Shown here: piece by piece, positions 11,727-64,000 of the stretch | Layout of the letters: the number at the start of each line of letters is the position of its first letter | How positions within the stretch are numbered: the stretch's first letter is position 1 | From: Ostreococcus lucimarinus | Taxonomy: Eukaryota | Strand: one strand, 5' to 3' | Assembly: GCA_000092065.1 (NCBI GenBank) | Contig: CP000598.1 | Length of the DNA: 64,000 nt | Position numbers and translations under genes: made by a program | The notes under the pieces: model-generated | The model's database searches: none | What the model was told of the DNA's origin: nothing | The model's input: the letters and a program-made list of their open reading frames with translations, nothing else

Positions 11727-11746
11727 GCACTGGTTGACTTGATTGA

Positions 11747-23092: not shown

Positions 23093-23668
23093 TTAGTATG
23101 AACACCAGACGACCGCCGGCGCGAGCTCCGTCTCCCCCGTGTACCCATTGTTCTTCAGCCACTCGAAGCACCCGTCGCGGTCAATTTCCCAATAGACGCC
23201 CTTCTCGTCCCTACCTTGCCTCAGGTGGTCCTCTTCCATTGGGATCCTGTGGCCCTTTTCCTTCTTGAAGAAGTCCTTGAGCTTATTGCCGACCTTCGTC
23301 GCGCTATCTTGGCCACGCGCAGCCGCTGGCAACCACGCCTGGTATTCGATGAAGATGTCACTGTTGCGGATTTTATTTCCAACCCACTTCTCAGGGAATT
23401 CAACAGTGACGCAATGCTCAAACCATCGAGTGAACTTGGGCATGCATCCACGCTTCATTTCCGAATACGCGTCGGTCGTAGGTCTCGTGCGCTCCACATG
23501 ATAACCGGTACGGAGAAGTTTATATTTATTAATTAAAGACTCGCGCGTGTTGGCGCTAAATGATTTTATTGCTGCCGAGAGACTCAAGTTTGGCCGTCGT
23601 TTGAGTCGCATCGATGGGTCGCGCCCGCCGATATAACGCCGGCGTTTCGGACACGATCTTGAAAACAA
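23093..23668 (-). CDS. Hypothetical protein (191 aa), second copy.
   Basis: Identical to 11151..11726 except T/A at one residue. Confidence 0.45.
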   Translation of the reverse strand: MFSRSCPKRRRYIGGRDPSMRLKRRPNLSLSAAIKSFSANTRESLINKYKLLRTGYHVERTRPTTDAYSEMKRGCMPKFTRWFEHCVTVEFPEKWVGNKIRNSDIFIEYQAWLPAAARGQDSATKVGNKLKDFFKKEKGHRIPMEEDHLRQGRDEKGVYWEIDRDGCFEWLKNNGYTGETELAPAVVWCSY

Positions 23669-23688
23669 GCACTGGTTGACTTGATTGA

Positions 23689-41764: not shown

Positions 41765-42787
41765 ATGGCTGAACTATCCACGGGGAAAGTCGAAACCGGC
41801 TTGGTGAGCCCAACGATGGGCGTTCGAACCGCCTCGCTGGCGTCGCGAAAGCATCAAGCGCTGGCGCTTTTCATCTTGACGATCCAAAACACCGCCTTGG
41901 TGCTCGTGACGAAGTTTTCGTATAGAAAATCTGCGACGCCTTACGTCGTGTCCACAGTCATCGCGAGCGCCGAGCTCGTCAAACTCGCTTTGAGCTATAT
42001 TTTGTTGGTCGCGTCCGACGGACAAAGCGCCGCCCGGGACGCGCTCCGCGAGGTGCCGTCCAACGCGACGCGGCTCGCGGTCCCATCCGTGCTGTACGTA
42101 ATACAAAACAACCTCCTTTTCGAGGGCGTGCGGTTGCTGAGCCCGACCGCATACATGGTGTGTTCGCAGAGCAAAATTCTCACGAGCACGATTTGTAGCG
42201 TCTTGCTCCTAGGAACGCGAATCACGCGTAAACAATATGTAGCGTTGTTGGTCCTCGCGTGTGGGATGATCATGGTACAGAACGAAGAAGGACGTGGACG
42301 CGATTTGCCGTCGGATAGAGCGCAGGTGAGACAAACTGTGCGAGGTATGGTCGTCGTGCTCACCGCCGCGTTTACGTCTGGCTTCGCGGGGGCGTATTTA
42401 GAGAAAATGTACAAAGAAGTGGGCGCTCAAAAGCGATCGGTATGGTTCCGCAACGCACAACTGGCGTGCTTTTCACTTCCAGTGGCGTTGATCGGATCAG
42501 TGTGGCGCGATGGAGAGCGCTTGCGCGCGAACGAAAGCGTGTTTCAAGGATACGACGGCGTCGTGTTGCTCGTCATCGCGCTACAAGCCGCCGGTGGTTT
42601 AGTCGTCGCGGCGGTGTTGCGATACGCGGGAAACGTGCTCAAGTGCTTCGCCGTGTCTATTTCTATATGTAATTGCGCCCTCGCGACGACGGTGTTTGCC
42701 AACGACGGACACAACCTGAGCGTTACGGCATCTCTCGGCATAGCGCTCGTCATCGGGTCGACGTTTCTTTATTCAAACGTAGTGTAG
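41765..42787 (+). CDS. Nucleotide-sugar transporter (SLC35A / UDP-Gal-CMP-Sia transporter family), 340 aa.
   Basis: 'LYVIQNNLLFEGVRLLSPTAYMVCSQSKILTSTICSVLLLG' matches the NST signature. About 10 hydrophobic helices. Confidence 0.7.
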   Translation: MAELSTGKVETGLVSPTMGVRTASLASRKHQALALFILTIQNTALVLVTKFSYRKSATPYVVSTVIASAELVKLALSYILLVASDGQSAARDALREVPSNATRLAVPSVLYVIQNNLLFEGVRLLSPTAYMVCSQSKILTSTICSVLLLGTRITRKQYVALLVLACGMIMVQNEEGRGRDLPSDRAQVRQTVRGMVVVLTAAFTSGFAGAYLEKMYKEVGAQKRSVWFRNAQLACFSLPVALIGSVWRDGERLRANESVFQGYDGVVLLVIALQAAGGLVVAAVLRYAGNVLKCFAVSISICNCALATTVFANDGHNLSVTASLGIALVIGSTFLYSNVV

Positions 42788-46127: not shown

Positions 46128-47060
46128 ATGCGTTGGTTGAGGGGACGTGGTGTCAAGGCGATAATGTGCGTCGCCCTTGTCGCAGGTTTCGCCAAGGTAC
46201 CAGATCTGCACGTCAATAAGTATACTATGACACAGACACTGCAAGGCGACGGCTTTGGTTCACAGTTTCAAAATATCACATCTACCGCGGCTGCTCTGCA
46301 CGTCAATAAGTGTACTATGACACAGACACTGCAAGGCGACGGCTTTGGTTCACAGTTTCAAAATATCATATCTACCGCGGTTTTCGCTCAAACCTTGAAC
46401 AAACACTTTTGCGTGACCCCTATCGAAAGCATGGAGCACAACTACGACAATCGCTCAACGTTCCTTCGAGAAGTCAGCGAACTGATTAATTTACCAGTAC
46501 TTTCAAGTCAAGAGGACATGGACATTGAAAAGTGCGAGGTTAAAAAAGGCTGGCTGGATAGCTACATAGTTCAGGAAGCAAATCAGTTGGACGTTCGTAC
46601 AAAATTGGGTAACATTCGAAAGCAGTTCTTGGGTAACAAGCGCTCGTTGTCGGAACTTCGTAAACACGCTGCCGTGCACATCAGGAGGCAGAATTCTTTT
46701 GATAATCGAAACACTGTTTCTCATGATGAAGTCGTGTGCTTTGTGATGAGGGAAATTCTCACTCAAAACAGCAATATTCAGTTTCATGTATTTAGCCAGG
46801 GCGATATTTCGGAGTTTTGGCGCTACCAGAACGATTCAAGAATCGTCCTACGTCTCGACGAACCCATCAACGTGACGTTCACTGAAATGGTTGTCGCCAA
46901 AATTTTGGTCACAGCCACGTCGTCATTTAGCTATGCAGCAGCACTTCTCTCAGAGGGTGAGATATGGGCCCCAAGACCGTTCTGGCACAACTACCCTTCC
47001 TTCTGGAAGACATATCAGCTTTCTCGTACATTGTCTAACTTTGAGACATGCCTACCATGA
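46128..47060 (+). CDS. Membrane-anchored hypothetical protein (about 310 aa) containing a 90-bp perfect tandem duplication (about 46210-46299 and 46300-46389, peptide HVNK[YC]TMTQTLQGDGFGSQFQNI).
   Basis: Track ORF starts at GTG 46074; first ATG is 46128 (MRWLRGRGVKAIMCVALVAGFA). The tandem repeat is read directly. Confidence 0.4.
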   Translation: MRWLRGRGVKAIMCVALVAGFAKVPDLHVNKYTMTQTLQGDGFGSQFQNITSTAAALHVNKCTMTQTLQGDGFGSQFQNIISTAVFAQTLNKHFCVTPIESMEHNYDNRSTFLREVSELINLPVLSSQEDMDIEKCEVKKGWLDSYIVQEANQLDVRTKLGNIRKQFLGNKRSLSELRKHAAVHIRRQNSFDNRNTVSHDEVVCFVMREILTQNSNIQFHVFSQGDISEFWRYQNDSRIVLRLDEPINVTFTEMVVAKILVTATSSFSYAAALLSEGEIWAPRPFWHNYPSFWKTYQLSRTLSNFETCLP

Positions 47061-48372: not shown

Positions 48373-49344
48373 CTACAACCCCTGGCAGAGCACTTGAGCA
48401 ACATGCCGCATGTGGCGAAATCGCATGTTCAAGAATAAATCGTCGGCGCAATCATGATTCAAACCTCTTGGGAGGTATTCAAAGCCCAACGAGGTGATAA
48501 AGTCGCGAAGTTCATGCTCGCCATGCTGATCAGCGTAGCCGGTAACCACTAGCTCCGGTTGAATCCAGACAACTCGTTTCGATAGCCAATGCCGAGCCCC
48601 TTTGATAATCTCTAAGTCATGGCCCTGTGCGTCAATCTTCAACATGTCGATATATTGGACGCGGCCACCTTGAACACCTAGAGACTCTGACTTTGGAACT
48701 GACACGGACCAAGGCAGAAGGGTAAAGAAATCATGAAGATTCCAAACAGGGACCTGAATTTCATTCTGCACGTCAAACTTGACCGGTTTGTGTAAGCTTG
48801 ATGTCCCTGGATCACCAGCGGTCGCGTAAAATGTCTGCAAGTGTAGAGGAGAAGAGCCCATCGCCACACAAGATAAAAAGTAGCGTTTGCCAACTAAGTC
48901 CAACGGCACACAGAGGTCTCCTGTGGAGCAAGCACAACCCTTCAGTATGTTCTTGCAACTTGTCGGATTAGGCTCAAACGCAAAAACTGTCAGCTGATCC
49001 GGATCGGAAGTGCTGCTGAACCATAAGGCGGAGTTTGGAGCGTTGTAAGACTCACCAATAGATATTTTCACACGCCGCGTATGCCTCGGCAGTGCAATTT
49101 TTCCACGCCGCAGGTGCACTGGAAGTAAGGCACGCGTGGCGTGACGAGTGCGCGAGATATCTTTGATACGTTCGGCCCCTACGAGTGGATCACTTTTTGG
49201 TTCTTCACAGCTACTCCCAAGTGAGTCGCTGTACGATTCAGTCACAGGAAGTCCGCGTGCTGACGCAAACGCAAGGAGTACGAGCGAACCCAGCGAACCG
49301 AGCAAACAGCCCGCAACCAACCTAAATTTCATACTGAATTTCAT
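48373..49344 (-). CDS. FkbM-family methyltransferase domain protein with N-terminal signal/anchor (about 324 aa).
   Basis: 'MLKIDAQGHDLEIIKGARHWL' matches the FkbM C-terminal block. Start placed at ATG 49344 preceding MKFSMKFRLVAGCLLGSLGSLVLLAFASA; an upstream in-frame ATG at about 49398 is an alternative. Confidence 0.55.
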   Translation of the reverse strand: MKFSMKFRLVAGCLLGSLGSLVLLAFASARGLPVTESYSDSLGSSCEEPKSDPLVGAERIKDISRTRHATRALLPVHLRRGKIALPRHTRRVKISIGESYNAPNSALWFSSTSDPDQLTVFAFEPNPTSCKNILKGCACSTGDLCVPLDLVGKRYFLSCVAMGSSPLHLQTFYATAGDPGTSSLHKPVKFDVQNEIQVPVWNLHDFFTLLPWSVSVPKSESLGVQGGRVQYIDMLKIDAQGHDLEIIKGARHWLSKRVVWIQPELVVTGYADQHGEHELRDFITSLGFEYLPRGLNHDCADDLFLNMRFRHMRHVAQVLCQGL

Positions 49345-50080
49345 TCTGACAGGGACTCGCACGTTCTCGTGTCGCTTAAAGCCCGTATTTTGCTCCATCT
49401 CTTCGCGGTCTAAATACTGTATAAAGTGGGTGTGTAGTACGCTCTTTTCCGTTCTTCGGCCTGGGTGTTCAGTATGCTGTTTCCGGTCTTCAGTTTCTTC
49501 ATCTCGACGGCTTCGGGGCGACCACTTTGGCCGGCGACGAGTTTGCCCTGTACCATAGGACATCGTGGCCGCACACAGCATTTCGAGGCCTATATATTAT
49601 AATATCTCTTGTTTTTGTCAGAGGCCTATTTCTCAGAAACATCGTGTCCTTATGCGAAAATGAGGTGGATTAAGAGATGCGAAATTCGAAAATAGAATCG
49701 GCGATTTATTCCGATAAGGGCCGTTTTTTCCCACATCGGAATGAATCGGGCCTTTGTATTCCGAAAAGATACTTGTCAAAATAGCGCGACTCGTCACGTG
49801 ACGAGTTAATTTTAGGGGGTCCTATTCCGACAACGCTATTCCGGCTATCTCTTTTGAAAAACTAGCGACGCGAAATGAAGACGCGCAGTCGCCCCACTAG
49901 TGCGCGTCACTTGTTGAACTCGTTCTTCACCGAACGGGGTTTTAAAGACGTACATGTGTCCTCAGGGAACCGCATGCGGATTGTCGTCGATCTCCTTTGA
50001 CCTCGGACGCTGAGGCCTCGGACCTTAAAGTCCCCGCTTCCGACGTAAAAAGTTCTGTCAGTGCGAGTTTTAGCCACGCT

Positions 50081-52366
50081 ATGAACTGGAGACTGAGTAT
50101 GTCGGAGTCGAAGTCGTTGTTGATTCTTCTCGTTGCATATGCATTTTGCAGCTCGACTCTCTTGATTCTCAATAAAGTTGCGTTGCAGACCATAAACTCG
50201 GGTACATTTTTGCTCCTACTACAGTGCGTGTTCACTTGTATGGCTCTTGGGACTCTCGACCATTTTGGATTTACTTCGGCTATTTCGCCTCTGGAGGCAG
50301 CCGAGCGCGAGCGATTTACTGTGGTGGTTGCCCTGTTCGTGACAACTCTATTTGCCAACATGAAATGTCTACAACTCGCAAACGTCGATACCGTTATCTG
50401 TATCCGCATGACGTGTCCTTTGTTAGTGAGTTTGCTCGATTATCTCTTTCTTGGAAGGGAGCTGCCCACTCGCACTTCAACCCTAGCATTGGTTGCAACT
50501 TGTGTGAGCTTTGCCTCATTTTTACTCGTTGAACAGAACTCTTCATGGATCACAATATTTTGGCTATCATTTTGGTACTGTGCTATGGTATTTGAGACCG
50601 TATTCGTCAAGTTTGTTGTCAGTGACTCGTCGCTTTCAACAGCGGCACAGTCCTTCTATCAAAATTTACTTGCGATCCCGGTGTTGACAGTGATATGGTT
50701 TTCCACAGAGATCCCAACTAGTGTTTTTGAACAAATTTCTTTGTCTACTTCGGAATTCTCCTTGGTTCTGTCCACTTGTATTCTCGGGTTAGGGATGAGC
50801 TACTTGTCGTTTGCTGTGCGTGAACGGGTATCGGCGACGAGCTTTTCAATGCTTGGTAATACGTGCAAGTTGATAACAATTCTAACGAATTATTTACTAT
50901 GGGAAAAACATGCTACAGGTGTTGGAACTTTTGCAGTCCTTTTCTGTCTTGCATCCAGTACCTTTTATCGCCAGGCGCCGTTGCGACATCCTATTAATCA
51001 TAAGGCGCAGTCATGGTTTCCCGCCCCTTGTACCATCAAGGCTACTGAAGAAGTCAATATGAGGATCATTGCAGCTGGGTTACTCGGTATCCTGGCGCTT
51101 GGCTTGCACTTTACTTCATATTTTCGTAGTTCTGTGAACTGGAACCTTGAAGAACAAACAGGTGTTTCTGGCGTTTCAGGAAAATTATTTACTGGTGCAC
51201 AAGTGCGGCAGTATTTTCCTTCGCATGACGATCGTCCTTCCAAGAAAAATCGTTCGACCTCTTCTCCCTTCTTTTCTGATCATATGTCTTGCGAAAATTG
51301 GGCCGTTTGTACCACCATCTTCGTCGAGTCAGACGCAGTGCGTGACGTTTGTAAAATACTACCGTCGTACTGCCTACTTGTCGTCGCAGATAAGAAAGGT
51401 CCACTAGAATACTTCATCGACGGGAACTGCACGTTCGCATACTTATCTGTAGAGCAACAAGAAGACATGTTAACAGACTCAGACTTCATCACAGAAACGC
51501 CGTGGAATCACTTTGGGCGGAAAAATCTAGGGTACTTGTTTGCAATAGCGAATGGTGCGAAGATGATATGGGATTTTGATGATGACAATCAAATAATCAG
51601 TTCAAAATTTTTTCTCGATCAGGCAGGAGAGCACCAACTAGTTACAGTCGAACCAATTACTTCGATGCTGAATCCTTACCCCTTACTTGGTGCCGAAAAG
51701 TTTTCCTGGCCTCGTGGTTTTCCACTCGACGGTATAAAAAACGAGGCATCACAACCAAGCGTTGACGATCTACGAGTTTCTGTCGTCGACTTCGAACGTG
51801 TCGGAGTACTGCAATCACTGGCGAATAATGATCCAGATGTTGATGCTATTTACAGGCTTCAGAGAGACCTGCCTTTCAGCTTCAAAGGCTGGTCGAGTCC
51901 TGCAAGTGTTTTCGTTTTGCCAGGCGCTTCTTTTGCTCCCTGGAATGCTCAAGCCACCCTTTTCAGGATGCGGGATGCACTCTGGGTTTCGTATTTACCT
52001 ATCTCTATTCATGGTAGGGTATCTGATATATGGAGATCATACATAGCGCAGCGACTTTTGCGGAACGTGTGTATTCACATCGCCTTCGCTGTGGAGCCAC
52101 TTGTTGTGCAACATCGAAATCAGCATTCCTACCTTGCCGATTTCGATGCGGAGCAAGATTTGTATTACAAATCAGGTAAACTGATCGAGCTTCTTGGAGA
52201 GTGGACCGCAAAATCTTCCTTTCCTCAAGAGCAGATTGTGGAGCTCTTCAGGATTCTGTATGAACATGATTATGTTGGAATCAAAGATGTTCGAATGATC
52301 GAACTCTGGATTTCAGAGCTCAACCGAGCGGGATACATCTTTCCAAAGAGCTGCAGTGTCCGCTAG
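50081..52366 (+). CDS. Single ORF fusing an N-terminal TPT/EamA-type (nucleotide-sugar/triose-phosphate transporter-like) 10-TM domain to a C-terminal STELLO-like (DUF288) putative glycosyltransferase domain (about 761 aa).
   Basis: N-terminal 320 aa is hydrophobic helices with the 'LQLANVDTVICIRMTCPLLVSLLDY' TPT pattern. An internal hydrophobic segment MRIIAAGLLGILALGLHF follows. The C-terminal 'CLLVVADKKGPLEYF...NHFGRKNLGYLFAIANGAKMIWDFDDDN' matches the DUF288/STELLO core (KN.GYL.AI.HGAK.I.D.DDD). No stop codon between the two parts. Confidence 0.55.
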   Translation: MNWRLSMSESKSLLILLVAYAFCSSTLLILNKVALQTINSGTFLLLLQCVFTCMALGTLDHFGFTSAISPLEAAERERFTVVVALFVTTLFANMKCLQLANVDTVICIRMTCPLLVSLLDYLFLGRELPTRTSTLALVATCVSFASFLLVEQNSSWITIFWLSFWYCAMVFETVFVKFVVSDSSLSTAAQSFYQNLLAIPVLTVIWFSTEIPTSVFEQISLSTSEFSLVLSTCILGLGMSYLSFAVRERVSATSFSMLGNTCKLITILTNYLLWEKHATGVGTFAVLFCLASSTFYRQAPLRHPINHKAQSWFPAPCTIKATEEVNMRIIAAGLLGILALGLHFTSYFRSSVNWNLEEQTGVSGVSGKLFTGAQVRQYFPSHDDRPSKKNRSTSSPFFSDHMSCENWAVCTTIFVESDAVRDVCKILPSYCLLVVADKKGPLEYFIDGNCTFAYLSVEQQEDMLTDSDFITETPWNHFGRKNLGYLFAIANGAKMIWDFDDDNQIISSKFFLDQAGEHQLVTVEPITSMLNPYPLLGAEKFSWPRGFPLDGIKNEASQPSVDDLRVSVVDFERVGVLQSLANNDPDVDAIYRLQRDLPFSFKGWSSPASVFVLPGASFAPWNAQATLFRMRDALWVSYLPISIHGRVSDIWRSYIAQRLLRNVCIHIAFAVEPLVVQHRNQHSYLADFDAEQDLYYKSGKLIELLGEWTAKSSFPQEQIVELFRILYEHDYVGIKDVRMIELWISELNRAGYIFPKSCSVR

Positions 52367-52743: not shown

Positions 52744-53988
52744 TCACTCTGGAAACAAGGTACGCGTTTTTCTTCTCCAGTGCTTCAAGATATCGGCAAT
52801 TGTGTTTGTGATGTTTGGGTCAGGAATCCACCCCGTCAGCTCTCGTATTTTCCTATTATCTGACAAAAGTATCTTCTCATCGTAAAGCCGCTCACGTGCA
52901 CCATCAAACAGCGTCGTGATGTCTGGTCTTGTTGACAGTGAAATCGCTGTGTCTAGGATGTCCTTCATTGAAAGTGCGATGCCACTACCGATGTTGTACG
53001 ACTCTCCAGGCTCTCCAAGGTCTACAAGTTTCGTTACCACTCGTGCAGAATCGCGGAGGTCAGTTATGTCCCTTTTTGTGGTAATGCGCCCATGTCTCAC
53101 CACTGGGCTTTGCAATCCGAGCTCGATCATTGCTATCTGCCGACAAAACTCTTGAGGTGCGAGACTCTCAGTCCCACCCGCTGAAACTTGGATAAAAAAT
53201 CGAGCGGTGACGACGTGCATGCCGTGGCTGTGCACATATTGCTGAGCAAGTAGGTCTGCTGCAACCTTGCTTACTCCATAAGGAGACACGGGCGCCAATG
53301 GTGCTTCTTCAGGTATGGCCCCTTCCCACGTATCAGCAGTTTTTCCATATTCTGTGCTTGAACCAGCCAGCAGAAAGCGCGTTTTGTTGGAGAGTCCTGC
53401 AAATCGCACTGCTTCTAGCATGTTGAAGGTGCCTTTGATGTTGGTATCTAAAGTCAGCTCAGCGGAGTCATATGAAACCCCGTTGATTGCTTGTGCAGCA
53501 AAATGGAAAATAACTGTTGGGCAGATTTCTGCGACCACCTGTTTGACACGAGTTCCGTCCAGAATGTCTCCACGAACGAGCTGTATGTTGTTCAATTCGC
53601 CTGCCAAATTTGACAGGTCAGATCGGTATCGCACAAGACCGTGAACCTCATACTTTCCTTCCTGTATCAACTGTTTCACAACGTAGCTGCCTATCATTCC
53701 AGACACACCTGTCACGAGAGCTCTTGGTCTTGCAGATAGAGCACTCAAGCAAGGCGTGTAATCTTTACTCTTTGCATTAAGATTTGTAGCAAAAGAGGAT
53801 TCCTCACGGTACATATGAGTTTTTGAAGGTTGAACATTGTATCGTGAAGTAACCGGGCTTGAAAGTCCTGATTTGAATTGCACAGCCTGATATGACGGAT
53901 GTAACACAACAGCTGCTAAAACAAACGATGAAACAGCCAATATTCGTGCAGTCTTTCCCAGCGTGTGCTTGAAGCGACTGTCGCGCAT
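52744..53988 (-). CDS. GDP-mannose 4,6-dehydratase-like short-chain dehydrogenase (GMD/Rmd family) with an N-terminal membrane anchor (414 aa).
   Basis: 'ALVTGVSGMIGSYVVKQLIQEGKYEVHGLVRYRS' (Rossmann plus GMD-type N-terminus), 'AGSSTEYGK' (catalytic S/T..Y...K region). Anchor ILAVSSFVLAAVVL about 60 aa before the Rossmann fold. Confidence 0.6.
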   Translation of the reverse strand: MRDSRFKHTLGKTARILAVSSFVLAAVVLHPSYQAVQFKSGLSSPVTSRYNVQPSKTHMYREESSFATNLNAKSKDYTPCLSALSARPRALVTGVSGMIGSYVVKQLIQEGKYEVHGLVRYRSDLSNLAGELNNIQLVRGDILDGTRVKQVVAEICPTVIFHFAAQAINGVSYDSAELTLDTNIKGTFNMLEAVRFAGLSNKTRFLLAGSSTEYGKTADTWEGAIPEEAPLAPVSPYGVSKVAADLLAQQYVHSHGMHVVTARFFIQVSAGGTESLAPQEFCRQIAMIELGLQSPVVRHGRITTKRDITDLRDSARVVTKLVDLGEPGESYNIGSGIALSMKDILDTAISLSTRPDITTLFDGARERLYDEKILLSDNRKIRELTGWIPDPNITNTIADILKHWRRKTRTLFPE

Positions 53989-54469
53989 AGATAGCTGTCC
54001 TTAGCAAGTGATGACTATGTTATACTTCGAAGGTGTGCGGGACAAAATTCGCGACTGCCCTTGAGCGGCACGGAATGAGTTCAACAAGTGAGGCGCGCTG
54101 GCAGGGCGACGGCGCGCGTATACGTGTCGCGTCTCTTCATTTGCCATCATTTTTTATGTACAGTACAAGGGGGCTAGTAGTACTTTAGTAAAGTAATTGT
54201 ACTAATTGTAGTCATGATTGGTCGTTGTGCAGCATTGAGTCATGATTCGTCGTTTTACCCCTCCCAAACGTTGGCGGTATTTAGCCAGATCCGAATGTAC
54301 ACAGTCAGACGGTCGCTCTTGGGTCATGACTTGTCAAATGGGCTCAAAAACTCGCCCCGGCCGTGATCACCACAATGCCCTGACGCTCACTTTTTCGCTC
54401 AAAACGCTATCCTATGCCAAACGATGCCCGCACAACGGAGGACGCAGTCAAACGACTACAAACACTAGC

Positions 54470-55663
54470 ATGGCGTCCGTAGCGTCCGTTATCGCCGCCA
54501 AGCGCGCTGGCTTCATCGGTATGGGTCGTCTGGGATTGTGTACCGCCCTCAAGTTTGAGCAAGCGGGTTGGGATGTCTGTGGGTCTGACGTCTTTCCGTC
54601 GTACGTTGAAAGTATCAACGACAAGAGTCTTCGAAGCAAAGAGCCCGGAGTCGAAGAGGCTTTGCGAAAGAGCACGCGTTTGCGAGCGACTCTGAATCTC
54701 CTTGATGTCCTAGAGCATGCCGATATCGTTTTCATTCTCGTCGCGACTCCAACCAGCGCGGGCGAAGAGGCCTACGACACGACAACTCTGAGCAGGGTCT
54801 TGAGTGATATCGCTAAATTAAGGCCGACAAACAAACACATCGTGATTTGCTGCACAGTGTTGCCTGGTTACATCTCGAACATCGGTAGTTACCTTATCGA
54901 AAGTTGCACTGGATGTAGTTTGAGTTACAATCCAGAGTTCATCGCCCAGGGTGAGATCATGAAGGGCCTCAGTGAACCCGACGTGGTGCTCATAGGGGAA
55001 GGAAGCGAAGAAGCCGGTGATATTCTACAGTTTTTATACGAGACCGCGACGTCCAATGAGCCTCGGATCTGTCGCATGTCTCCGCAAAGCGCTGAGATAA
55101 TGAAACTAAGCGTAAACTGCTTTGTTACCACGAAGATCAGCTTCGCCAATATGATTGGTGACATTGCTGACGCGACGCCTGGTGCAGACAAATTCGACAT
55201 CCTTAGAGCCGTTGGTCAGGATACACGTGTCGGCCACCGGTGCATCCTTCCAGGTTACGGCTTCGGAGGTCCTTGCTTTCCACGTGATAATAGAGCACTC
55301 GGAATGTACGCACGCAAGGTTGGAATCACTCCTTCAATTTGCGACGCGACGGATGAATACAACCGACTTCACGCGGACGCCATGGTAAAGGCTCTTTTGG
55401 AACAAAAACTAGAGCATTATACCATCAGTGATGTTGCTTACAAGCCACAGTGTCCGGTGGATATTATTGAAGAGTCGCAACCACTCGAAGTGGCCAAGAG
55501 ACTTGTTCAAGCAGGCAAGCGAGTCGTTATACGCGATCGACCCGCCATCATCGAGCTCGTACGCCGCGCTTACGGGCGTATGTTTACCTACGGAGCATAC
55601 AAAGTACCTAACGAAGAACCAAATACTTCTGCTGGCAACCCGTTATCAAGCTACGCGAGGTAA
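54470..55663 (+). CDS. UDP-glucose/GDP-mannose 6-dehydrogenase family (UgdH/WecC-like nucleotide-sugar dehydrogenase), about 397 aa.
   Basis: 'GFIGMGRLGLCTALKF' NAD-binding start, 'NPEFIAQGEIMKG', 'GFGGPCFPRDN' catalytic Cys block. Start moved to ATG 54470 (MASVASVIAAKRAGFIGMG) by analogy with the paralogous fragment at 58817. Confidence 0.7.
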   Translation: MASVASVIAAKRAGFIGMGRLGLCTALKFEQAGWDVCGSDVFPSYVESINDKSLRSKEPGVEEALRKSTRLRATLNLLDVLEHADIVFILVATPTSAGEEAYDTTTLSRVLSDIAKLRPTNKHIVICCTVLPGYISNIGSYLIESCTGCSLSYNPEFIAQGEIMKGLSEPDVVLIGEGSEEAGDILQFLYETATSNEPRICRMSPQSAEIMKLSVNCFVTTKISFANMIGDIADATPGADKFDILRAVGQDTRVGHRCILPGYGFGGPCFPRDNRALGMYARKVGITPSICDATDEYNRLHADAMVKALLEQKLEHYTISDVAYKPQCPVDIIEESQPLEVAKRLVQAGKRVVIRDRPAIIELVRRAYGRMFTYGAYKVPNEEPNTSAGNPLSSYAR

Positions 55664-56407
55664 GCTCAACCATGTTCACGTTTCAACGCTGTCACCAACT
55701 CACCGCGTGTCTGATGCGCTGGTGGCCAGATCTTTTGATTTAATATCTATCCATGATATAATCACAGATCTTTCACATCTTAGCCACCGTGCTCGTCGTT
55801 TCCTCGGATCTCGCACGAAGTTGAGATAAATTTCATGTATAAATTACTCACCCTAATATCATACTGCATACACTTTAAGTGCGTCGATAAAGAGCTTTGA
55901 GGTCGTGACAACGGCTGGAATCTACGAACCTGTTTCACGCATCAAAGTCCACCATGCTTTGAACCCTGCGGTTTGTGGCGCGTGATGAGCAAGTAGCAAG
56001 TGCCACCCAAACCTGCGTTCTATGGTGCGCACGAGAGCATCCGGCATAGCCGCGAACCACGGCTCTTTTTTGTATGTGTACGATGTATATGATTTGTATG
56101 TGTATGATTTGTTCGGGCGTTTTTTCCTTCGACTAATTTTGTCATCATCATCGAAACGGAACGTTTAATTCGAGCTCTCCACATTTTAGGGCTAATTTTG
56201 GGAAAAGTGTGACTGTCCATGTATAGACACAACACCAAACTCGATTAAAAAGCTCCTCAAAAAATGTGCGGGAATTGTCTCGAGTGTGTGGCGCTTGCGA
56301 TTGTGGCACGCGTTGAAGCGACTCGCGGTACGGCACGTACGTAGTCTTGAACACGAATATATGTGAATACGATTCACGTTCGAACGCTCTTGGAGTTGCG
56401 CTTCGAC

Positions 56408-57961
56408 ATGCTACTGAAAGTAGCTTGCGATTCCGGTACTATGGCTCGCCGAACGGTCATTCTGTTTGCGGTTGTGGCCGTGTTGCTTTGGAGACTGTTC
56501 TTGTTCGATATTGGTGACAGCAGATTTAAAAGTATCACACCACATCCATCACCGGAGCAAAGACGACAACAAAATCACCGAGCAAGATTTTTAGAGCTCA
56601 CACATAACGAAACCTACAAAACCGCAAATGTCGAAGAGAGGAACGATGAACATTTCAAGATGGAACGATATGAAGAATCACCTGCAAGATTACAAGCGTC
56701 AGCTAATTTGGATACACAGAGCACCCGCGTCTTGGTTTTAAGTTGGCATGGTGGTACCGCGAAAGACACAGCGATGCAACTTCATAACGCTGGAGTTCGT
56801 CGCGAAAATATCGTGTGTGGAGGCATTATTTGGTACGAGAAAGTCCTCGATTCTGCTCCTTGCGTAAGAGATCATGCATTATCTGAGGCTTTGAATCGAT
56901 TGACACAGCGTGTAAGAGGTTTTCCCATGGCTATCGATCCAGCAGACGAGAAATGGTTGGATGATTTCGCAGCTGAGGCTAGCGAGATGCTATCTACGTT
57001 CCATGTGCTCTGGGCGGACTTTCCTACCGCCCTTTGTCTTCTATTAAACAAGATTGCCCCACATAAATTGATAGTACGCACAACGCATCGTTTTGATCAC
57101 CAGGTGGCTCATTCGAAGATAAATCACACGTCATTTGTACGTAAAAGCCTCATGCGCGTTCTACGCGAGGCGCCAATACTTCTTGCTGGGAGCGAGTACG
57201 ATCGGGCATACATGAAGTTCTACACATGTCGTGAACCTGAACGTCTATTCATAACATGGCCAACACAGTATTTGGAGAGTTTGGGCGCATCGCGTACACT
57301 TACGAACGAGTCATGCTTCATCTTGTGGGGGGGGTCGAACAACGAAGGTAGTTCAAGCATATCGATTACATTTGATAGAATACGAGTCCTCGGGCGCACT
57401 ATGGAGTCACAAGTTCCCATGAAAAGTCGCCCAACGAGTTTTGCTCACGCTTCGGAATTTGCAACAGAGCAAGCCGTAGTATATTTCCCATACAGTATGC
57501 CGAGTTCCGCATTTCATGAACTTTACGCGAGTGGTGTCCCCCTTTTCGTGCCATCGTTGACTTTCATGCTCGATGAGTTTTCAAAAAACCGTGGCTATCC
57601 TCACAAAGTAGCTGGTAATGTCCCTTGTGCTTCACCATCTTTTTACGAAAACGCTGAGGCAGTGGAGTTCTGCTGTCTTGACGATACTGGGGTATGTCAT
57701 GATCCAAATTCATGCGATCCTGAAGCGCTGAAACAATGGGTATCATTAGGTGACCTTTACACCACCCCGCATGTGACGTATTTCGACAGTGCCGAGCATG
57801 CTGTGGAACTCATGAGCAACTGGATGAAGCATCCAGACCAACGGGATCGAACGATCGAGGACATGGAGTCACACAACGTTGCTAACCTTCGATGGAATGC
57901 TCGTGTCGTTCAAGCCGCAATTCGTCATGTCAAACAAAGCAGCGCGCTTGAACTGGATTGA
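56408..57961 (+). CDS. Type II membrane protein, possible glycosyltransferase (about 517 aa).
   Basis: Anchor RRTVILFAVVAVLLWRLFLF. Long ORF. Its last 46 codons are duplicated at 61462-61599. Confidence 0.4.
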   Translation: MLLKVACDSGTMARRTVILFAVVAVLLWRLFLFDIGDSRFKSITPHPSPEQRRQQNHRARFLELTHNETYKTANVEERNDEHFKMERYEESPARLQASANLDTQSTRVLVLSWHGGTAKDTAMQLHNAGVRRENIVCGGIIWYEKVLDSAPCVRDHALSEALNRLTQRVRGFPMAIDPADEKWLDDFAAEASEMLSTFHVLWADFPTALCLLLNKIAPHKLIVRTTHRFDHQVAHSKINHTSFVRKSLMRVLREAPILLAGSEYDRAYMKFYTCREPERLFITWPTQYLESLGASRTLTNESCFILWGGSNNEGSSSISITFDRIRVLGRTMESQVPMKSRPTSFAHASEFATEQAVVYFPYSMPSSAFHELYASGVPLFVPSLTFMLDEFSKNRGYPHKVAGNVPCASPSFYENAEAVEFCCLDDTGVCHDPNSCDPEALKQWVSLGDLYTTPHVTYFDSAEHAVELMSNWMKHPDQRDRTIEDMESHNVANLRWNARVVQAAIRHVKQSSALELD

Positions 57962-58094
57962 AAATGCTGGTCGATACAAAGAAGCTGTGGGGGCGATACT
58001 TTGGACATCGTATTCAATATCTTACTTGGCGTACCTCGCCATGTAGAGTCTCACGCCTAGCGTATGTACGCGAAGTGAAAATAGATTTGAGTTT

Positions 58095-58817
58095 TCATTT
58101 AGTGTAACTCGATAGCGGGTTTTCCATGGTGGTGTTCGGGATGGGCGCTACTCCCCCTGCCGTAGTATCGCATATTTCGTAATCGAACAACTGCCCGTAC
58201 GTTCCTCGCACTAAGTGAACAATCGCCACCCGGTCGAAAACTGTCACTTTCTTCCCCCGTCGCACGAGTCGTTTCGCGATTTCGAGCAGCTGGGACTCTT
58301 CGATGATATCCACAGGACAATTCGATTCATATGCGACGTAGGATACCTTACACCTATCGAGATCTAGCCAGGTAACACCGTGCCTCAAATCATCAAGTGT
58401 TTGTTCTCGGGGTTCAAGTCGCTAATATCACTCAAAAAACCGACTGAGCGCGCTTGTGTCGTACGCTTGATCTCCAGAGTCAGTGGGCGTGGCGACGAGG
58501 ATGAAGACCATATCGACGCGATCGATCACTTCACGCAGCTTTAAAGTTGCGCGCAGATGTTTGCTCGATCGAAGCGCTTCCTCGACTCTTGGCTCAGTCA
58601 AACGAAGCGTGATTTCGTTGATGCTGTCCACGTGCGCCGGAAAGACATCCGAACCAACGATATCCCAATCAGCTTGTTCACACTTGAGAGCCGTACATAG
58701 TCCGAGTCGGCCCAGACCGACGAATCTGGCGCGCGTTGTTTGCAAGATCGATCGAGTGGTAGCCATCTTCGCTCTGCGACGTTGCAACGTCAGAGACGGC
58801 GACTGGCCCAAGATCAC
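58095..58817 (-). pseudogene. Internally deleted paralog of the nucleotide-sugar dehydrogenase. N-terminal about 110 aa (58428..58817) and C-terminal about 80 aa (58095..58388) are recognisable; the central catalytic region is missing.
   Basis: 'MATTRSILQTTRARFVGLGRLGLCTALKCEQADWDIVGSDVFPAHVDSIN' and '...CPVDIIEESQLLEIAKRLVRRGKKVTVFDR...ENPLSSYTK*' align to the ends of 54470..55663. Confidence 0.6.
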
Positions 58818-59560
58818 TCCACTCTCTTAAAGCATGTCTCTTTCTGGACTTTATTATCCCTGGTACTTTGTTAGGTATATGTCGTAGGAACGCAACCGCG
58901 GACCACAGCCTCGGTGTTGACTCACCACTGCTTTCCTCTGCGTCGAAACTACCGCAACAACGCTCTTGACACGCGCACTAACATTAAGTACACCGGTCGT
59001 GAGCGACGCCATGCGCGAGTCGAATGAGTTCGTGAAAACGTTTTACGATGATCGCCCTTGTAACATTCGGCTCGAAGGAATACTTTGAAGAAGTGACGCG
59101 GCGTAAATATTTCGTCGAGAACCACACTTTGGCATTCGCAAGTCTCGACGCGTACGAAAACAATCTGTTCTCGAGGTTGGTTGCGGTATAGGGACCGCGA
59201 CACAAAGTTTTACTGAAGCTGGCGCGGTTTACACAGGCATCGACGTTTCCTTGCGAAGTGTAGAACTCGCTGAGAAGCGACTCAAACTGTTCAAACTCAA
59301 TGGTGAGGTGCGCGTTGCAGATATACAGACCGATGAATTCATGCACGACCATTTTGATCCTCTTTTTAGTTTCGGAGTTCTGCATCACATCGCCGATGTA
59401 CAACCCGCCGTGAAGGATATTTCATGACTCTCAAACCGGGAGGCGAGTGCAAGCTGATGATGTACGCAAATAATTCTTGGAAAAAAACTTGGAAAAAGAC
59501 TTTCGTCGACTCGGGATTGGACCAATTTGAACCACAATCTGGAGTTCCAATCACTCACAC

Positions 59561-60750
59561 TTACAAAGCCAGTGTCGTGCAATCATCAAGCTCGTTTGTG
59601 AAATCAAACTCGAGCGATCGTCGTCGACCGTCCGCGCTCGCCGAAGGGTGCGGGCGCAACGCAGGTGAGAATTCGCCCCAGTAGGCGCTCAAGTCGTTAT
59701 TCGAGTACCAACGCACGGTTTCCGCGAGACCGACGTCCCAGGACTTTTCTTGTCGCCATCCGAGCGCTAAAAGCTTTGAGCAATCGATGAAATATCTTCG
59801 GTCGTTGAAGGCTCGATCGCTCACGTGCTCGATGGTCGTTTCCGGGTCGCGATCGAGGAGCTTACAGACATCCCGAGCGACGGACAAGATCGTCCGCTCT
59901 TCGCGCGAGCCGATGTTATAAATCTGCGCCGTCGTCCCGCGGTGGAGAATGACATCGAACGCCGAAGACGCATCGTCAACGTGCATGTACGAACGCGTCG
60001 CGTCGCCGTCGCCGTGTATCGAAATCTTTTCCCCGCGTTTCGCGAGGATTGAAAACTTTGGAATCGCCTTCTCTGGATACTGATTCGGCCCATACACGTT
60101 GTTTCCGCGAGTGATGATGTACGGTAGTCCGTACGAGCGTCCATACGCCATGACGAGCATCTCCGCGCCCGCCTTGGTCGCGGCGTACGGGTTGGTGGGC
60201 GTCAGGAGCGACGCGTGCTCGGTGTTTGAATCCATGAGATTTTCCCCGTATACCTCATCCGTGGACACGTGCAGGAATCGTCGAATTTCGGTCTTCTGCG
60301 CTCGCACGCACGCCTCGAGTAACGCGTGCGTGCCCTCGATGTTATTCTTCGTGAACTCGTACGAGTTCCCGAAAGAGTTGTCCACGTGACTCTGCGCGGC
60401 GAAGTGCATGACGGTGTCGATGCGCTCGCTTTGCAAGACGTAACTCAATAAATCGAACGAACGCACATCGCCCTTGACGAACCGCACGTTCGCGCATTCT
60501 TTCGCGCGCTCGAGATTTTTCAAGCTCGAGCAATAGTCGAGCTTGTCCAGGATGACAATCTGTCGAGCGCGACGAGTCGTTCGCGGTCAGTCGTTCGCGC
60601 GAGAGATGGGTGCAAAGTCCGTGCGTTGTTCGACGCACGCGCACGGGGTCGAAATCGTGCGCGCACCGTGTACTCGGGATGCCTCGACGCGAGGCGCTCG
60701 GCGACGTGCGAGCCGATGAAGCCGGCGCCACCGGTGAGAAGGATGCGCAT
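59561..60750 (-). CDS. dTDP-glucose 4,6-dehydratase (RmlB) / UDP-glucose 4,6-dehydratase family, two exons. Exon 1 is 60667..60750 (MRILLTGGAGFIGSHVAERLASRHPEYT), intron 60560..60666 (GTGCGC...ACAG, 107 nt), exon 2 is 59561..60559 (IVILDKLDYCSSLKNL...).
   Basis: Exon 1 contains the GGAGFIGS Rossmann motif. Exon 2 has 'HFAAQSHVDNSF' and 'YAATKAGAEMLVMAY' (catalytic YxxxK). Joining the exons restores the expected 'Y.V..LDKLDY' continuity in frame. Confidence 0.7.
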
Positions 60751-61239
60751 GCGGGCGGACGGGCGTCTCGGTCGAGCGCGTCTAGATTTTCGCAGATTAT
60801 CTCGACGACATGCTCGCGAATACCGCGCGCGCCTCGAGGGCGTTCGCGAGTGCTGCGCGCGATGTCCACGCGACGCCGCGCCTTTTGACGCCACTCGCAC
60901 CGGCGCGCAGAAAACGAACGGCGGTTCGGCGGGGCGCGAAAGTGATTACTCCTTCGGGGGTAACCTAGGCGAGCTTCCCGTATTCATGTACAAATTACTC
61001 ACCCATATATCATACCTGGTATTGATCCGACACGCGTCAGAGATAACGGGGAGAATAAAACCACAGAAATTCATGTACACGCGGCACTTCGACAAAGTCT
61101 TTCGATCGTTAAAGCACTGGTGACCCCTCTACCCTCCACGTTCTGTCAGAGGCTAGTTCTGTGAGTCTCTCAGTCTGTATTCTTTTACACCGAAGGTCGC
61201 TCCGAGGACGAAACTATCTTGTGTTTATTTTTGGATCTG

Positions 61240-61830
61240 GTCTACTGCATACACTTTAAGTGCGCCGATAAAGAGCTTTGACTTCGTGACAACGGCTGTC
61301 ATCTACGAACCTGTTTCACGCATCAAAGTCCACCATGCTTTGAATCCTGTGGCTTGTGGCACGTGATGAGCAAGTGCCACCCGAACCTGCGTTCTATGGT
61401 GCGCACGAGAGCGTCCGCACGAGAGCATCCGGCATGGCCGCGAACCACGGCTCTTTTCTGGATGAAGCATCCAGACCAACGGGATCGAACGATCGAGGAC
61501 ATGGAGTCACACAACGTCGCTAACCTTCGATGGAATGTTCGTGTCGTTCAAGCCGCAATTCGTCACGTCAAACAAAGCAGCGCGCTTGAACTGGATTGAA
61601 AATGCTGGTCGATACAAAGAAGCTGTGGGGACGATACTTTGGACATCGTATTCAATATCTTACTTAGCGTACCTCGCCGTGTAGAGTCTCACGCCTAGCG
61701 TACGTACGCGAAGTGAAAATAGATTTGAGTTTTCATTTAGTGTAACTCGATAGCGGGTTTCCCATGGTGGTGTTCGGGATGGGCGCTACTCCCCCTGCCG
61801 TAGCATCGCATATTTCGTAATCGAAAAGTT
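61240..61830 (+). repeat. Composite duplicate: 61240-61460 copies 55860-56070, and 61462-61830 copies 57822-58190. Carries a truncated 3' fragment (61462..61599) of the 56408..57961 gene, a pseudogene remnant.
   Basis: Direct alignment. ORF 61354..61599 ends with the same 'WMKHPDQRDRTIEDMESHNVANLRWN.RVVQAAIRHVKQSSALELD*' as 56408..57961. Confidence 0.75.
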
Positions 61831-61841
61831 AACGTGCCCAT

Positions 61842-61925
61842 CGAGTACTAATCAATGATAGCTACTTGTAATCATCATCACTTATTGACGCAGGCCCGAT
61901 TGATCGCATAGTATTAGGTATAGCT
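61842..61925. repeat. Inverted partner of the 85-bp element at 45781-45865.
   Basis: The reverse complement aligns at about 90% identity. Confidence 0.65.
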
Positions 61926-62812
61926 CGCATTTCGAAAATAATGTATGAGGGTAAAATAATGAATTTAATTAACGTCGACGTTTGTCGCGCCGTCGCGCGC
62001 CACTTCGCGCCGCGCGCGCGTCCGGGCGGCGCGGAGTCAACCGATGTTTCCGCGTATCGTGATATCCGACCGTTTAAGTTTGAATTCTGTGCGTGGGTGT
62101 TGACGGAACACGACCGTTGGAGCTCGATGGGCACGTTAACTTTTGGGCCAGATTCTGTCGCGTATGACGCACCCTCGCGCGCGCCGAAGCGCGTCTCCGA
62201 CCGTGTCGACGGCACGGAAAGGTTGTAAGAAGGCTTCTCAGCGATCTTCAGCCTCGCTGGGAGGAGCAGAGGCAACGACGGCTCCCGCTTGCGACGACGA
62301 AGACTGGCGCGCTCAAGTGGCCAAAGATGCTCGTGAGGTTGCCGTTTCTTTGCTCGCGAACAAACGTCGCCGGGAGGTTTCTGTTTCTGATACTATACTA
62401 TACTTAGGGCTAGCTCATTCAGGCGATGTGAAACGTCCGTGACGACGCGCTCATACGTAAATTCTTGCATGAATGCGCGAGCATTTGCTGTGATTTCACG
62501 CAACCTCGTTAGCGATTCGCCATCGGTGTTCGCCACAATCTTCGTTTTCTCAGCCAAATCGTGCAAATCTTCGGATATTCCGATGAAGTGTATCACATCT
62601 ACTAGCTTGTCGCTGTAAGTGATCGATTTCTAAAAAAGTTGCACGAGGTAAAAACACCCCGGCGGAGTCCTCACCCTTTACCCATACTCTTGAGTCATGA
62701 ACGGCCAAAACCGAGCTAAATTTAGCGAAGCCCGGGCGAACCACGATTCATTCCTCCGTGAAGGACGTCCGCGTGCCCGAAGATTCCGACGCCAGCATAC
62801 ATCGCGGAGTTG

Positions 62813-64000
62813 ATGGGACGGTTAAAAAGTATCCTCGTCCTCGATCGCCGAAGAGCGAGAACTCTGATCTCGTTAGTCTCGTTAGTCTCGCTAGTCTCGT
62901 TGTGTTTCGCCGCCCTGCTATCGGTGAACAAACATGCCGGTTGGCCGCGAAAAGGCGATCCTCCCACGCCCTCGTTGGACTCGATGAAAGATATCGAGTC
63001 AGAACGTTTCGACAGAACGGCCTATTCTGCTGAAATCAAAATCGCGATTGTCTTCGGTACGCGACCAGAGGCTGTGAAAATGGCTCCGGTGATTCAAGCG
63101 GTGGCCAGATCGTCGACTCTGAGTGCGATACTGATCTCCACGGGTCAACACAAACAGATGCTTGAGCAAGTTCTGCGCCAGTTCAGCTTGCAAGATAAAA
63201 TTCAACACGAGCTAGCGCTGATGAAGCCAAATCAACAGCTCGCAGAGCTCACATCGAGCGCGGTGCGCGCGGTAGACGGCGTGCTACGTTCGTCAAAACC
63301 AGACGCGGTGCTCGTGCAGGGCGATACAACGACAGCGTTTATCACGTCTTTGGCGGCGTTTTACTTGAAAATACCAGTTGGACACATCGAAGCGGGTCTT
63401 CGTACGCGTGATATCTACTCACCCTTTCCCGAAGAAGTCAATAGACAGTGTATCTCAGTTATGGCGACGTATCACTTCGCACCCACCGAACACGCGGCAA
63501 AAAATCTGTACGACGAGGGTAGACGCACGAATGTGTTTACAACCGGTAACACTGTTGTCGATGCCCTATATGCAATTTTAAAGACTGAACCGAGTGATCG
63601 AGTGATTGAGCTATCCAAAGTCGTGAAGACTGTATCCACTCTGCGCGACGTGAGGCTGTTACTTCTCACCGCTCATCGACGTGAAAACCTTGGCGAACCC
63701 ATACTCAACATCTTCACAAGCATAGAGAAGCTTCTGCAAGAATACCCTGACGTCGTCGTGATTTATCCCATTCACTTGAACCCTATGGTGAAGCACTTAG
63801 CAGAACAGCACTTCGGCGTTGATACATTCCACAGCCTTGTACAGTCGGACCACGCGCCGCCAACGACTACGCACTTACGGCGATTGCTGATAGTACCACC
63901 TCTAGACCATGCAGATTTATTATTCATGATGAAAGAGAGTTTTTTCGTCATGACAGATTCGGGAGGTATCCAAGAGGAAGCGGTCACTCTAGGAAAACCG
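62813..64000 (+). CDS. UDP-N-acetylglucosamine 2-epimerase (WecB/MnaA type, non-hydrolysing), partial (runs off the right edge), with an N-terminal membrane anchor encoded partly by a 9-bp x3 tandem repeat (SLVSLVSLVSL).
   Basis: Hand translation from ATG 62813: MGRLKSILVLDRRRARTLISLVSLVSLVSLCFAALLSV...KIAIVFGTRPEAVKMAPVIQ...GQHKQM...PDAVLVQGDTTTAF...HIEAGLRT...PFPEEVNRQ...HFAPTE...TGNTVVDAL...LTAHRREN...VMTDSGGIQEEAVTLGKP. The ORF track omits it because no stop occurs before the window end. Confidence 0.75.
   Translation, partial: MGRLKSILVLDRRRARTLISLVSLVSLVSLCFAALLSVNKHAGWPRKGDPPTPSLDSMKDIESERFDRTAYSAEIKIAIVFGTRPEAVKMAPVIQAVARSSTLSAILISTGQHKQMLEQVLRQFSLQDKIQHELALMKPNQQLAELTSSAVRAVDGVLRSSKPDAVLVQGDTTTAFITSLAAFYLKIPVGHIEAGLRTRDIYSPFPEEVNRQCISVMATYHFAPTEHAAKNLYDEGRRTNVFTTGNTVVDALYAILKTEPSDRVIELSKVVKTVSTLRDVRLLLLTAHRRENLGEPILNIFTSIEKLLQEYPDVVVIYPIHLNPMVKHLAEQHFGVDTFHSLVQSDHAPPTTTHLRRLLIVPPLDHADLLFMMKESFFVMTDSGGIQEEAVTLGKP

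Follow-up and report, generated by a model that had tools for sequence, protein, structure and literature searches.

Two bacterial-type nucleotide-sugar enzymes with probable type II membrane anchors in a glycan gene cluster of Ostreococcus lucimarinus

We suggest that two bacterial-type nucleotide-sugar enzymes, encoded in the final part of a 64,000-nucleotide (nt) stretch of Ostreococcus lucimarinus DNA (GenBank assembly GCA_000092065.1, contig CP000598.1; the whole stretch is called the window below), are Golgi type II proteins with their catalytic domains in the lumen of the Golgi or endoplasmic reticulum (ER), a reading to which we assign a probability of about 0.7 from sequence. One is a short-chain dehydrogenase/reductase (SDR) resembling Rmd reductases; the other is a non-hydrolysing UDP-N-acetylglucosamine (UDP-GlcNAc) 2-epimerase of the WecB type, fused to a glycosyltransferase of predicted GT-A fold. 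Production of rare sugars probably takes place in the Golgi itself, at the site where the glycans of the cell surface are assembled. The two open reading frames (ORFs) and their parts, in amino acids (aa), are as follows.

52744..53988, minus strand: Rmd-like nucleoside diphosphate (NDP)-sugar SDR, 414 aa, from the first ATG after an in-frame stop
53988..53944, minus strand: SDR basic tail, aa 1-15
53943..53902, minus strand: SDR hydrophobic segment, aa 16-29
53901..53728, minus strand: SDR stem, aa 30-87
53727..52747, minus strand: SDR catalytic domain, aa 88-414
52746..52744, minus strand: SDR stop codon
62813..64000, plus strand: first 396 codons of a 789-aa fusion of predicted anchor, non-hydrolysing UDP-GlcNAc 2-epimerase and GT-A domain
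62813..62860, plus strand: WecB tail, aa 1-16
62861..62926, plus strand: WecB hydrophobic segment, aa 17-38
62927..63037, plus strand: WecB Pro-rich stem, aa 39-75
63038 onwards, plus strand: WecB domain, from aa 76

The hydrophobic run of the SDR (aa 16-29) reads ILAVSSFVLAAVVL and consists of 14 uncharged residues. Pfam (PF16363/PF01370, from aa 90) and PDB matches start at aa 88-91, so that the extension measures about 88 aa and not the ~60 aa given by a first-pass annotation of the sequence. The extension as such and the hydrophobic helix which that annotation placed in it are borne out by an AlphaFold2 model built from 121 homologues, in which a helix spans residues 10-29, confidence (pLDDT) drops below 50 at residues 36-54 and 56-69, and a confident fold begins at ~88 (pLDDT >95 from ~90).

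The proposed identity of this protein as a GMD-like dehydratase did not survive. It scores 132.2 bits against the NCBIfam gmd model (TIGR01472), well below the cut-off of 415, and no NCBIfam model was passed; its best PDB match is the RMD reductase 2pk3 (E 3e-54, aa 88-406). The catalytic Glu of GMD lies two residues past the catalytic Thr/Ser (Glu135 in E. coli). Thr212 of the window SDR replaces this acid: the aligned residue is Glu in the dehydratase 7us5 and in 2pk3, and Asp in 6x3b, and Thr occupies this position in 79 of 81 long and all 16 short family members. The Ser210/Tyr237/Lys241 triad is invariant in the family, and the GxxGxxG motif is kept together with an Arg120/Arg122 pair, which we take to be NADP-binding. 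By these features the enzyme should perform 4-keto chemistry on a hexose linked to GDP or another NDP, acting as an epimerase or a reductase; a dehydratase is unlikely. A cysteine in the stem, Cys80, precedes the Rossmann motif by some 13 residues; 65 of 81 long homologues have it, and its conservation is limited to extended forms. A conserved intramolecular disulfide through Cys80 is unsupported, as extended forms have no second conserved Cys.

Translation of the second gene from the ATG at 62813 gives MGRLKSILVLDRRRARTLISLVSLVSLVSLCFAALLSV and then IAIVFGTRPE at aa 77-86, exactly as had been read before. The tail, MGRLKSILVLDRRRAR, precedes a 22-residue uncharged segment (aa 17-38), and the catalytic domain starts at aa 74-76 by PDB and NCBIfam matches. 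The assignment to this family (PF02350) stands: TIGR00236 (wecB) scores 336.5 bits against a cut-off of 210.15, although the query is truncated at the window end, while the model for the hydrolysing NeuC reaches 81.9 on this ORF (cut-off 235.9), and the PDB matches 5enz and 1o6c have E ~1e-78. The catalytic residues of E. coli WecB are Asp95, Glu117, Glu131 and His213; the motifs VQGDTTT, GHIEAGLR, PFPEEVNR and TAHRREN of the window protein align with their counterparts in 5enz. The domain should thus make UDP-N-acetylmannosamine (UDP-ManNAc) from UDP-GlcNAc. For both proteins, comparison with bacterial-type homologues shows the extensions to be additions to bacterial-type catalytic domains, as had been proposed.

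What had been described simply as a WecB-type epimerase is the front of a longer protein, as the gene extends ~1.18 kb beyond the window end. The metagenome contig L008 overlaps the window by 1188 nt without a single difference and carries the ORF on to its full 789 aa, and the complete fusion ORF is found in L008, L011, L012, L014 and L015. The added C-terminal ~320 residues are modelled by AlphaFold2 at a pLDDT of 89. This domain has no Pfam match among ten fusion proteins scanned and no PDB sequence match, and it was recognised because fold comparison alone gave matches: the top Foldseek PDB matches are all GT-A transferases (heparosan synthase, GnT-I, EXTL2, ppGalNAc-Ts) at E ~1e-7 and TM-scores of 0.4-0.5. 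A DDD motif is invariant in 39 sequences, and the domain also has invariant cysteines. From its predicted fold we identify it as a GT-A glycosyltransferase outside Pfam. A tblastn search for a partner of the fused domain inside the window found none, the domain being the same gene's continuation past the window. The layout of N-terminal segment, WecB and GT-A domain also occurs in a 61%-identical Tara lineage and in many distant eukaryotic relatives. In two other proteins (P0514, P0516) the GT-A domain stands alone, with a hydrophobic segment of its own at the N-terminus and, right after this segment, a remnant of the C-terminal end of WecB (…MSG…GDG…), as though a fusion had lost its epimerase domain. 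In the GenBank model of the window gene (P0121, 389 aa), Met58 is the first residue, two conserved stretches that are in frame are treated as introns and the protein stops short of the GT-A domain; an exact look-up of P0121 among the contigs found none. The uninterrupted 789-aa ORF is the better gene model.

The case for translation of the two extensions is comparative: start sites were placed from natural variants, homologues and haplotypes. We infer that both extensions are very likely translated, each from the first ATG, where its ORF begins. That a frame stays open over 75-88 codons ahead of a domain has a chance of ~0.03-0.05, estimated from a stop-codon frequency of ~4%; an ATG, a basic tail and a hydrophobic run, recurring in the same layout in dozens of unrelated homologues, is not a product of chance. 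Among natural variants of the SDR (cluster at >=90% identity), Met1 is kept and substitutions lie in the tail and stem, the core ARILAVSSFVLAAVVLHPSYQ being invariant in seven full-length (414-aa) and two 405-aa variants. In two variants (P0002, P0010) Met59 is replaced by Ile, and with it goes the only alternative start before the Rossmann motif. Another protein, P0241 of a related haplotype, matches the window SDR without differences from about residue 67 up to the last few residues, and its first 69 residues show 83% identity to aa 1-69 (hydrophobic segment and stem) of the protein encoded next door at 56441..57961. P0241 has had its N-terminal module exchanged and has not lost it. Two Logan contigs of ~1.5 kb (L005, L006) were considered as transcripts and left unused as 5'-end evidence: they are colinear with the genome, lack poly(A) and end at 54166, the breakpoint of the L002 haplotype described below.

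The same layout recurs well outside this genome. At least 29 aa precede the GxxGxxG motif in 81 of the 121 SDR homologues, and among the 78 of them whose first residue is Met, 68 have a strong hydrophobic core; their N-terminal segments are unrelated in sequence, their sources include complete transcriptome ORFs and dinoflagellate proteins, and 16 short forms resemble bacterial proteins. For WecB, an exhaustive HMMER search shows an N-terminal hydrophobic core in ~20 of the 149 best relatives, including nearly all of the top-scoring ones. Extended relatives come from Tritrichomonas foetus, Mastigamoeba balamuthi, Spizellomyces punctatus, an MMETSP transcript and algae, and all relatives at 52-64% identity (P0123, P0124, P0127, L014-L016) have a basic tail and a hydrophobic segment. 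Homology among WecB haplotypes starts ~110 nt upstream of the ATG at 62813, with this ATG and the frame retained, and the only indels in the extension are losses of one or two 9-bp units, all multiples of 9 nt.

Topology was read from hydropathy, flank charges and the AlphaFold2 helix. In both window proteins the flank on the tail side carries a charge of +5 and the C-terminal flank +2, and the N-terminal flank is the more positive in 57 of 68 members of the SDR family and in 13 of 20 of the WecB family, with 5 ties. Under the positive-inside rule the more positive flank is cytosolic, which argues for a cytosolic N-terminus and a lumenal enzyme. Several relatives have signal-peptide-like N-termini, from which a lumenal placement follows for those proteins. 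The segments, which the first-pass annotation had proposed as membrane anchors, do look like type II signal anchors, and from this we infer lumenal orientation and Golgi residence.

Several findings weigh against this reading. In the WecB extension, the ratio of nonsynonymous to synonymous polymorphism (pN/pS) is 0.34-0.78 on 6-13 substitutions, indistinguishable from neutrality, compared to 0.08-0.14 in the catalytic part of intact alleles, and the GenBank model of the gene has Met58 as its start. This start and the denser amino-acid variation of the extensions than of the catalytic domains would fit an alternative in which Met58 (WecB) and Met59 (SDR) are the true starts, the upstream frame is an open 5' untranslated region and both enzymes are cytosolic; the ends of the short Logan contigs, moreover, coincide with a repeat boundary and do not demonstrate where transcription starts. 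We consider this quite improbable. The Met58 start carries little weight, because the same model also deletes conserved in-frame stretches of the WecB fold together with the whole GT-A domain. Met59 is Ile in two natural variants, the hydrophobic cores are invariant with indels kept in frame, P0241 retains a swapped-in anchor, and similar extensions stand in dozens of homologues from other eukaryotes, complete transcript ORFs among them. Start codons downstream of the hydrophobic segments are therefore contradicted by the Met59-losing variants and by the pattern of conservation.

Against stable anchoring stands the length of the SDR run, as just 14 uncharged residues may belong to a cleaved signal peptide. 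At least the SDR, and possibly both enzymes, would then be targeted to the ER, cleaved and left soluble in the lumen or secreted, and many homologues indeed have classic short h-regions from residues 1-5 (e.g. MLSSLLLALLLGAPGRTSA and MWLVLAALVATLILPACRAAA). This is an unlikely outcome, given that the WecB protein has 16-22 uncharged residues behind a 16-aa basic tail, which is typical of signal anchors, and that Mamiellophyceae-like relatives of the SDR have cores of 17-23 aa after tails of 10-30 aa.

A further difficulty is that the nearest characterised relatives of the SDR are NADPH-consuming reductases, while we know of no source of NADPH in the Golgi lumen, which makes its reaction hard to assign; an epimerase with a recycled cofactor would suit the lumen better than a reductase. 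The supply of NADPH to an Rmd-type reductase would be settled if the anchors held the domains on the cytosolic face of endomembranes, or if the extensions were organelle-targeting peptides, conversion then being cytosolic or plastidial, and the dehydrogenase and RmlB-like partners in the cluster are unanchored. Such an arrangement is very unlikely in view of the flank charges in both window proteins, the matching bias across both families, and signal-peptide-like relatives that are not compatible with a cytosolic location. The stem Cys conserved in extended SDR forms alone and the fusion of WecB to a GT-A domain with invariant cysteines fit lumenal enzymes, and uncharged hydrophobic runs of 14-22 residues are atypical of green-algal transit peptides. 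Finally, one wild WecB allele (L010) has a premature stop after ~134 codons and another (L013) diverges completely past residue 222; being broken and rearranged, respectively, they indicate that the gene is dispensable in part of the population.

Taking the lumenal reading as our basis, we propose that bacterial-type enzymes were refitted with a type II module made of a short basic cytosolic tail, one hydrophobic segment and a flexible stem. The WecB domain would turn imported UDP-GlcNAc into UDP-ManNAc, and the fused GT-A domain would consume the product at once, pulling an unfavourable equilibrium and keeping the rare donor out of the cytosol. As the WecB equilibrium favours UDP-GlcNAc, a fusion of epimerase and transferase is mechanistically sensible because immediate use of UDP-ManNAc pulls the reaction forward. 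The SDR would modify an NDP-hexose in the lumen by 4-keto chemistry, and transporters encoded in the cluster would deliver the lumenal substrates. No anchor is present on the NDP-sugar dehydrogenase, whose cofactor would have to turn over freely, or on the RmlB-like enzyme, which would supply pools in the cytosol.

The membrane segment of WecB is itself polymorphic in wild alleles, which were collected by a metagenome scan.

62868..62901, plus strand: 9-bp tandem repeat TCTCGTTAG encoding (SLV)n of the WecB membrane segment (Tandem Repeats Finder, 3.8 copies, 92% matches)

With its three copies, the window allele has a hydrophobic span of 22 aa; L009 and L010, with two, have 19 aa, and L011 and L012, with a single copy, have 16 aa. 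The Pro-rich stem (aa 39-75) likewise differs among alleles. It is tempting to see in the 9-bp repeat and the exchange of anchor modules a eukaryotic counterpart of bacterial phase-variable glycosyltransferases, where a change in the length or identity of the segment shifts the Golgi cisterna or retention, rewires which surface glycans are given ManNAc or other rare sugars and diversifies the landscape of virus receptors; we offer this as a doubtful conjecture. As a corollary, were this true, the Golgi of many protists, chytrid fungi and algae would be producing non-sialic glycans that contain ManNAc.

Two neighbouring genes for nucleotide-sugar enzymes lack such segments.

59561..60750, minus strand: RmlB-type NDP-glucose 4,6-dehydratase without anchor; exon 1 60750..60667, intron 60666..60560, exon 2 60559..59561
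54470..55663, plus strand: NDP-sugar dehydrogenase of the UGD/WecC family (PF03721/PF00984), within the ORF 54242..55663

The first ATG of the RmlB-like gene yields MRILLTGGAGFIGS directly and there is no hydrophobic segment upstream, in agreement with its earlier description as unanchored. Exon 2 alone scores 316 bits with TIGR01181 and has a Pfam match too. The gene is not a frameshifted pseudogene, as a clean 107-nt GT..AG intron separates the exons and its splicing restores PEYT|IVILDKLDYCSS. The dehydrogenase scores 222 bits with the generic subfamily model TIGR03026 (cut-off 189.8) and passes no equivalog model; a WecC-type UDP-ManNAc dehydrogenase is unsupported, with scores of 88 and 57 bits where the models require 750 and 459. 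Its start is probably Met77 of the longer ORF, because its protein cluster holds 397-aa versions. Without an N-terminal hydrophobic segment, it is presumably cytosolic. Both genes are absent from one metagenome haplotype (L002), in which window positions 61929-62225 are joined straight to 54166, so that 54167..61928 (~7.8 kb) is missing along with a gene for an unknown 506-aa protein and pseudogene fragments. These fragments, 58095..58817 (minus strand) and 61354..61599 (plus strand), are what segmental duplication has left behind: degenerate, incomplete copies of the NDP-sugar dehydrogenase gene, in two ORF fragments, and of the part encoding the C-terminus of the 506-aa protein.

Five ORFs of the window match proteins of O. 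lucimarinus CCE9901 exactly (ABP00661, ABP00660, ABP00650, ABP00612), with ABP00650 matched twice as its gene is duplicated within the window. We take the contig to be chr18, the small outlier chromosome of the published genome. The part of the window at ~37-64 kb is a glycan-building gene cluster on this hypervariable chromosome, and most proteins of the cluster have a single N-terminal hydrophobic segment. Other members are listed below.

40226..41548, minus strand: GT17-like glycosyltransferase (PF04724; exact match to ABP00661) with an N-terminal hydrophobic segment at aa 4
41765..42787, plus strand: SLC35A-type nucleotide-sugar transporter (PF04142, E 3.9e-71) with six hydrophobic segments
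48373..49581, minus strand: FkbM-type methyltransferase (PF05050) with one hydrophobic segment (aa 88) preceding the domain
50081..52366, plus strand: fusion of a multi-pass EamA/TPT-like transporter (PF00892 in the N-terminal half, nine hydrophobic segments) and a STELLO-type glycosyltransferase
56441..57961, plus strand: unknown 506-aa type II-like protein with an N-terminal hydrophobic segment and no Pfam or NCBIfam match

The SLC35A-type protein is a candidate importer of UDP-GlcNAc or other donors to the Golgi lumen, and the STELLO domain (PF03385) occupies aa 674-784 of the 789-aa ORF at 50081..52366. The hydrophobic segment of the FkbM methyltransferase (…LVAGCLLGSLGSLVLLAFASA…, 49283..49307, minus strand) also includes a short 9-bp repeat (GSL-GSL), which hints that repeat-encoded membrane segments may recur in the cluster. 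Repeats and duplications are seen elsewhere in the window as well. An unknown type II-like ORF at 46128..47060 (plus strand) has a 90-bp unit tandemly doubled at 46205..46380 (97% identity). The ORF at 1635..9368 (plus strand, 2577 aa) consists mostly of 75-bp tandem repeats, each coding for 25 aa; several hydrophobic segments lie in the C-terminal half of its product, which is probably a repeat-rich surface protein. A segmental duplication of ~4 kb (~10000..14300 and ~21900..26250, offset ~11.9 kb) holds in each copy an 841- or 843-aa ORF of the ABP00650 family with an N-terminal hydrophobic segment and identical short repeats. A GC-rich island at 26-37 kb (58-65% GC, compared to ~50% in the rest of the window) includes a 778-aa ORF (34930..37266, plus strand) whose start, MRLRVASLFSGIGGLDLGLERAG, resembles motif I of cytosine-5 DNA methyltransferases.

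Yau et al. 2016 (PMC5082852) and Blanc-Mathieu et al. 2017 (PMC5498103) describe this chromosome type in O. tauri as hypervariable and tied to prasinovirus resistance, with many genes for glycosyltransferases, NAD epimerase/dehydratases, sugar transporters and FkbM methyltransferases. The gene content at ~37-64 kb, with transporters, glycosyltransferases, two FkbM methyltransferases and several unknown proteins, fits this description, and the broken WecB alleles and the L002 gap agree with the known plasticity of the outlier chromosome. A second eukaryotic genome (L007; GCA_014466275.1, JACKZZ010005924.1), which also encodes CFAP91, has an SDR with an N-terminal extension of the anchored kind (P0244, 63% identity) adjoining a Gly_transf_sug glycosyltransferase and methyltransferase-like genes; the glycan-cluster context therefore extends beyond Ostreococcus.

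Predicted anchoring is widespread in eukaryotic homologues of both families and not peculiar to this genome, and such homologues stand in public databases under plain enzyme names. A scan of viral contigs with both proteins, able to detect close relatives only, gave no close homologue and one weak SDR match at 24% identity, so that a recent transfer of either gene between virus and host is unsupported. Lumenal interconversion of activated sugars is textbook knowledge for a few UDP-sugar SDRs of plants and animals only. In many eukaryotic lineages, the secretory pathway has apparently taken on two further enzyme families, of which one is non-SDR and transferase-fused. This predicts ManNAc or its derivatives, and possibly deoxyhexoses of the D-rhamnose type, in eukaryotic surface glycans, where to our knowledge such sugars have not been looked for. 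As the genes lie on the chromosome of prasinovirus resistance, their anchors, allele structure and module swapping offer testable handles on surface-glycan diversification. Faulty public gene models are flagged at the same time, the GenBank WecB model having neither anchor nor transferase domain.

The window cluster is similar to the outlier-chromosome glycosylation clusters of Mamiellales in chromosome type, gene classes and frequent rearrangement, and some sugar transporters of those clusters are likewise fused to glycosyltransferases (PMC5082852, PMC5498103). In the searched passages of these two papers, anchored nucleotide-sugar enzymes, the epimerase-transferase fusion, anchor exchange and repeat-encoded segments are not discussed. 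In full-text literature searches, no account of anchored WecB or Rmd-type enzymes came up, in line with the first-pass annotation, which had called anchoring undescribed for these families.

The closest parallels in architecture are UDP-xylose synthase (UXS), UDP-glucuronate 4-epimerase (GAE) and UDP-xylose 4-epimerase (MUR4), enzymes for nucleotide-sugar interconversion that plants and animals anchor in the Golgi as type II proteins. They receive their substrates through nucleotide-sugar transporters and can work with a bound, recycled cofactor or none. Like them, each window protein leads from a basic tail through one hydrophobic segment near the N-terminus and a stem to a complete catalytic domain of the soluble type. 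Unlike them, WecB is a two-domain Rossmann-like epimerase outside the SDR superfamily and is fused to a glycosyltransferase, and the window SDR belongs to the GDP-sugar GMD/RMD branch. The WecB domain resembles bacterial WecB/MnaA (TIGR00236; 5enz, 1o6c, 1f6d), with 45-51% identity to Firmicutes enzymes and the GDT, HxEAGLR, PEE and AHRREN motifs, but while bacterial WecB is a soluble protein of ~365 aa, the window protein is longer at both ends, by ~75 residues that include a membrane segment at the N-terminus and by a GT-A domain of ~320 aa at the C-terminus. The window SDR shares with RMD (2pk3, 6x3b) and GMD (1db3) the extended SDR fold, GxxGxxG, the catalytic triad and Arg120/Arg122 after strand 2, and differs from 7us5, 2pk3 and 6x3b in having Thr212 in place of Glu or Asp and in its 88-aa putative targeting extension with a conserved Cys.

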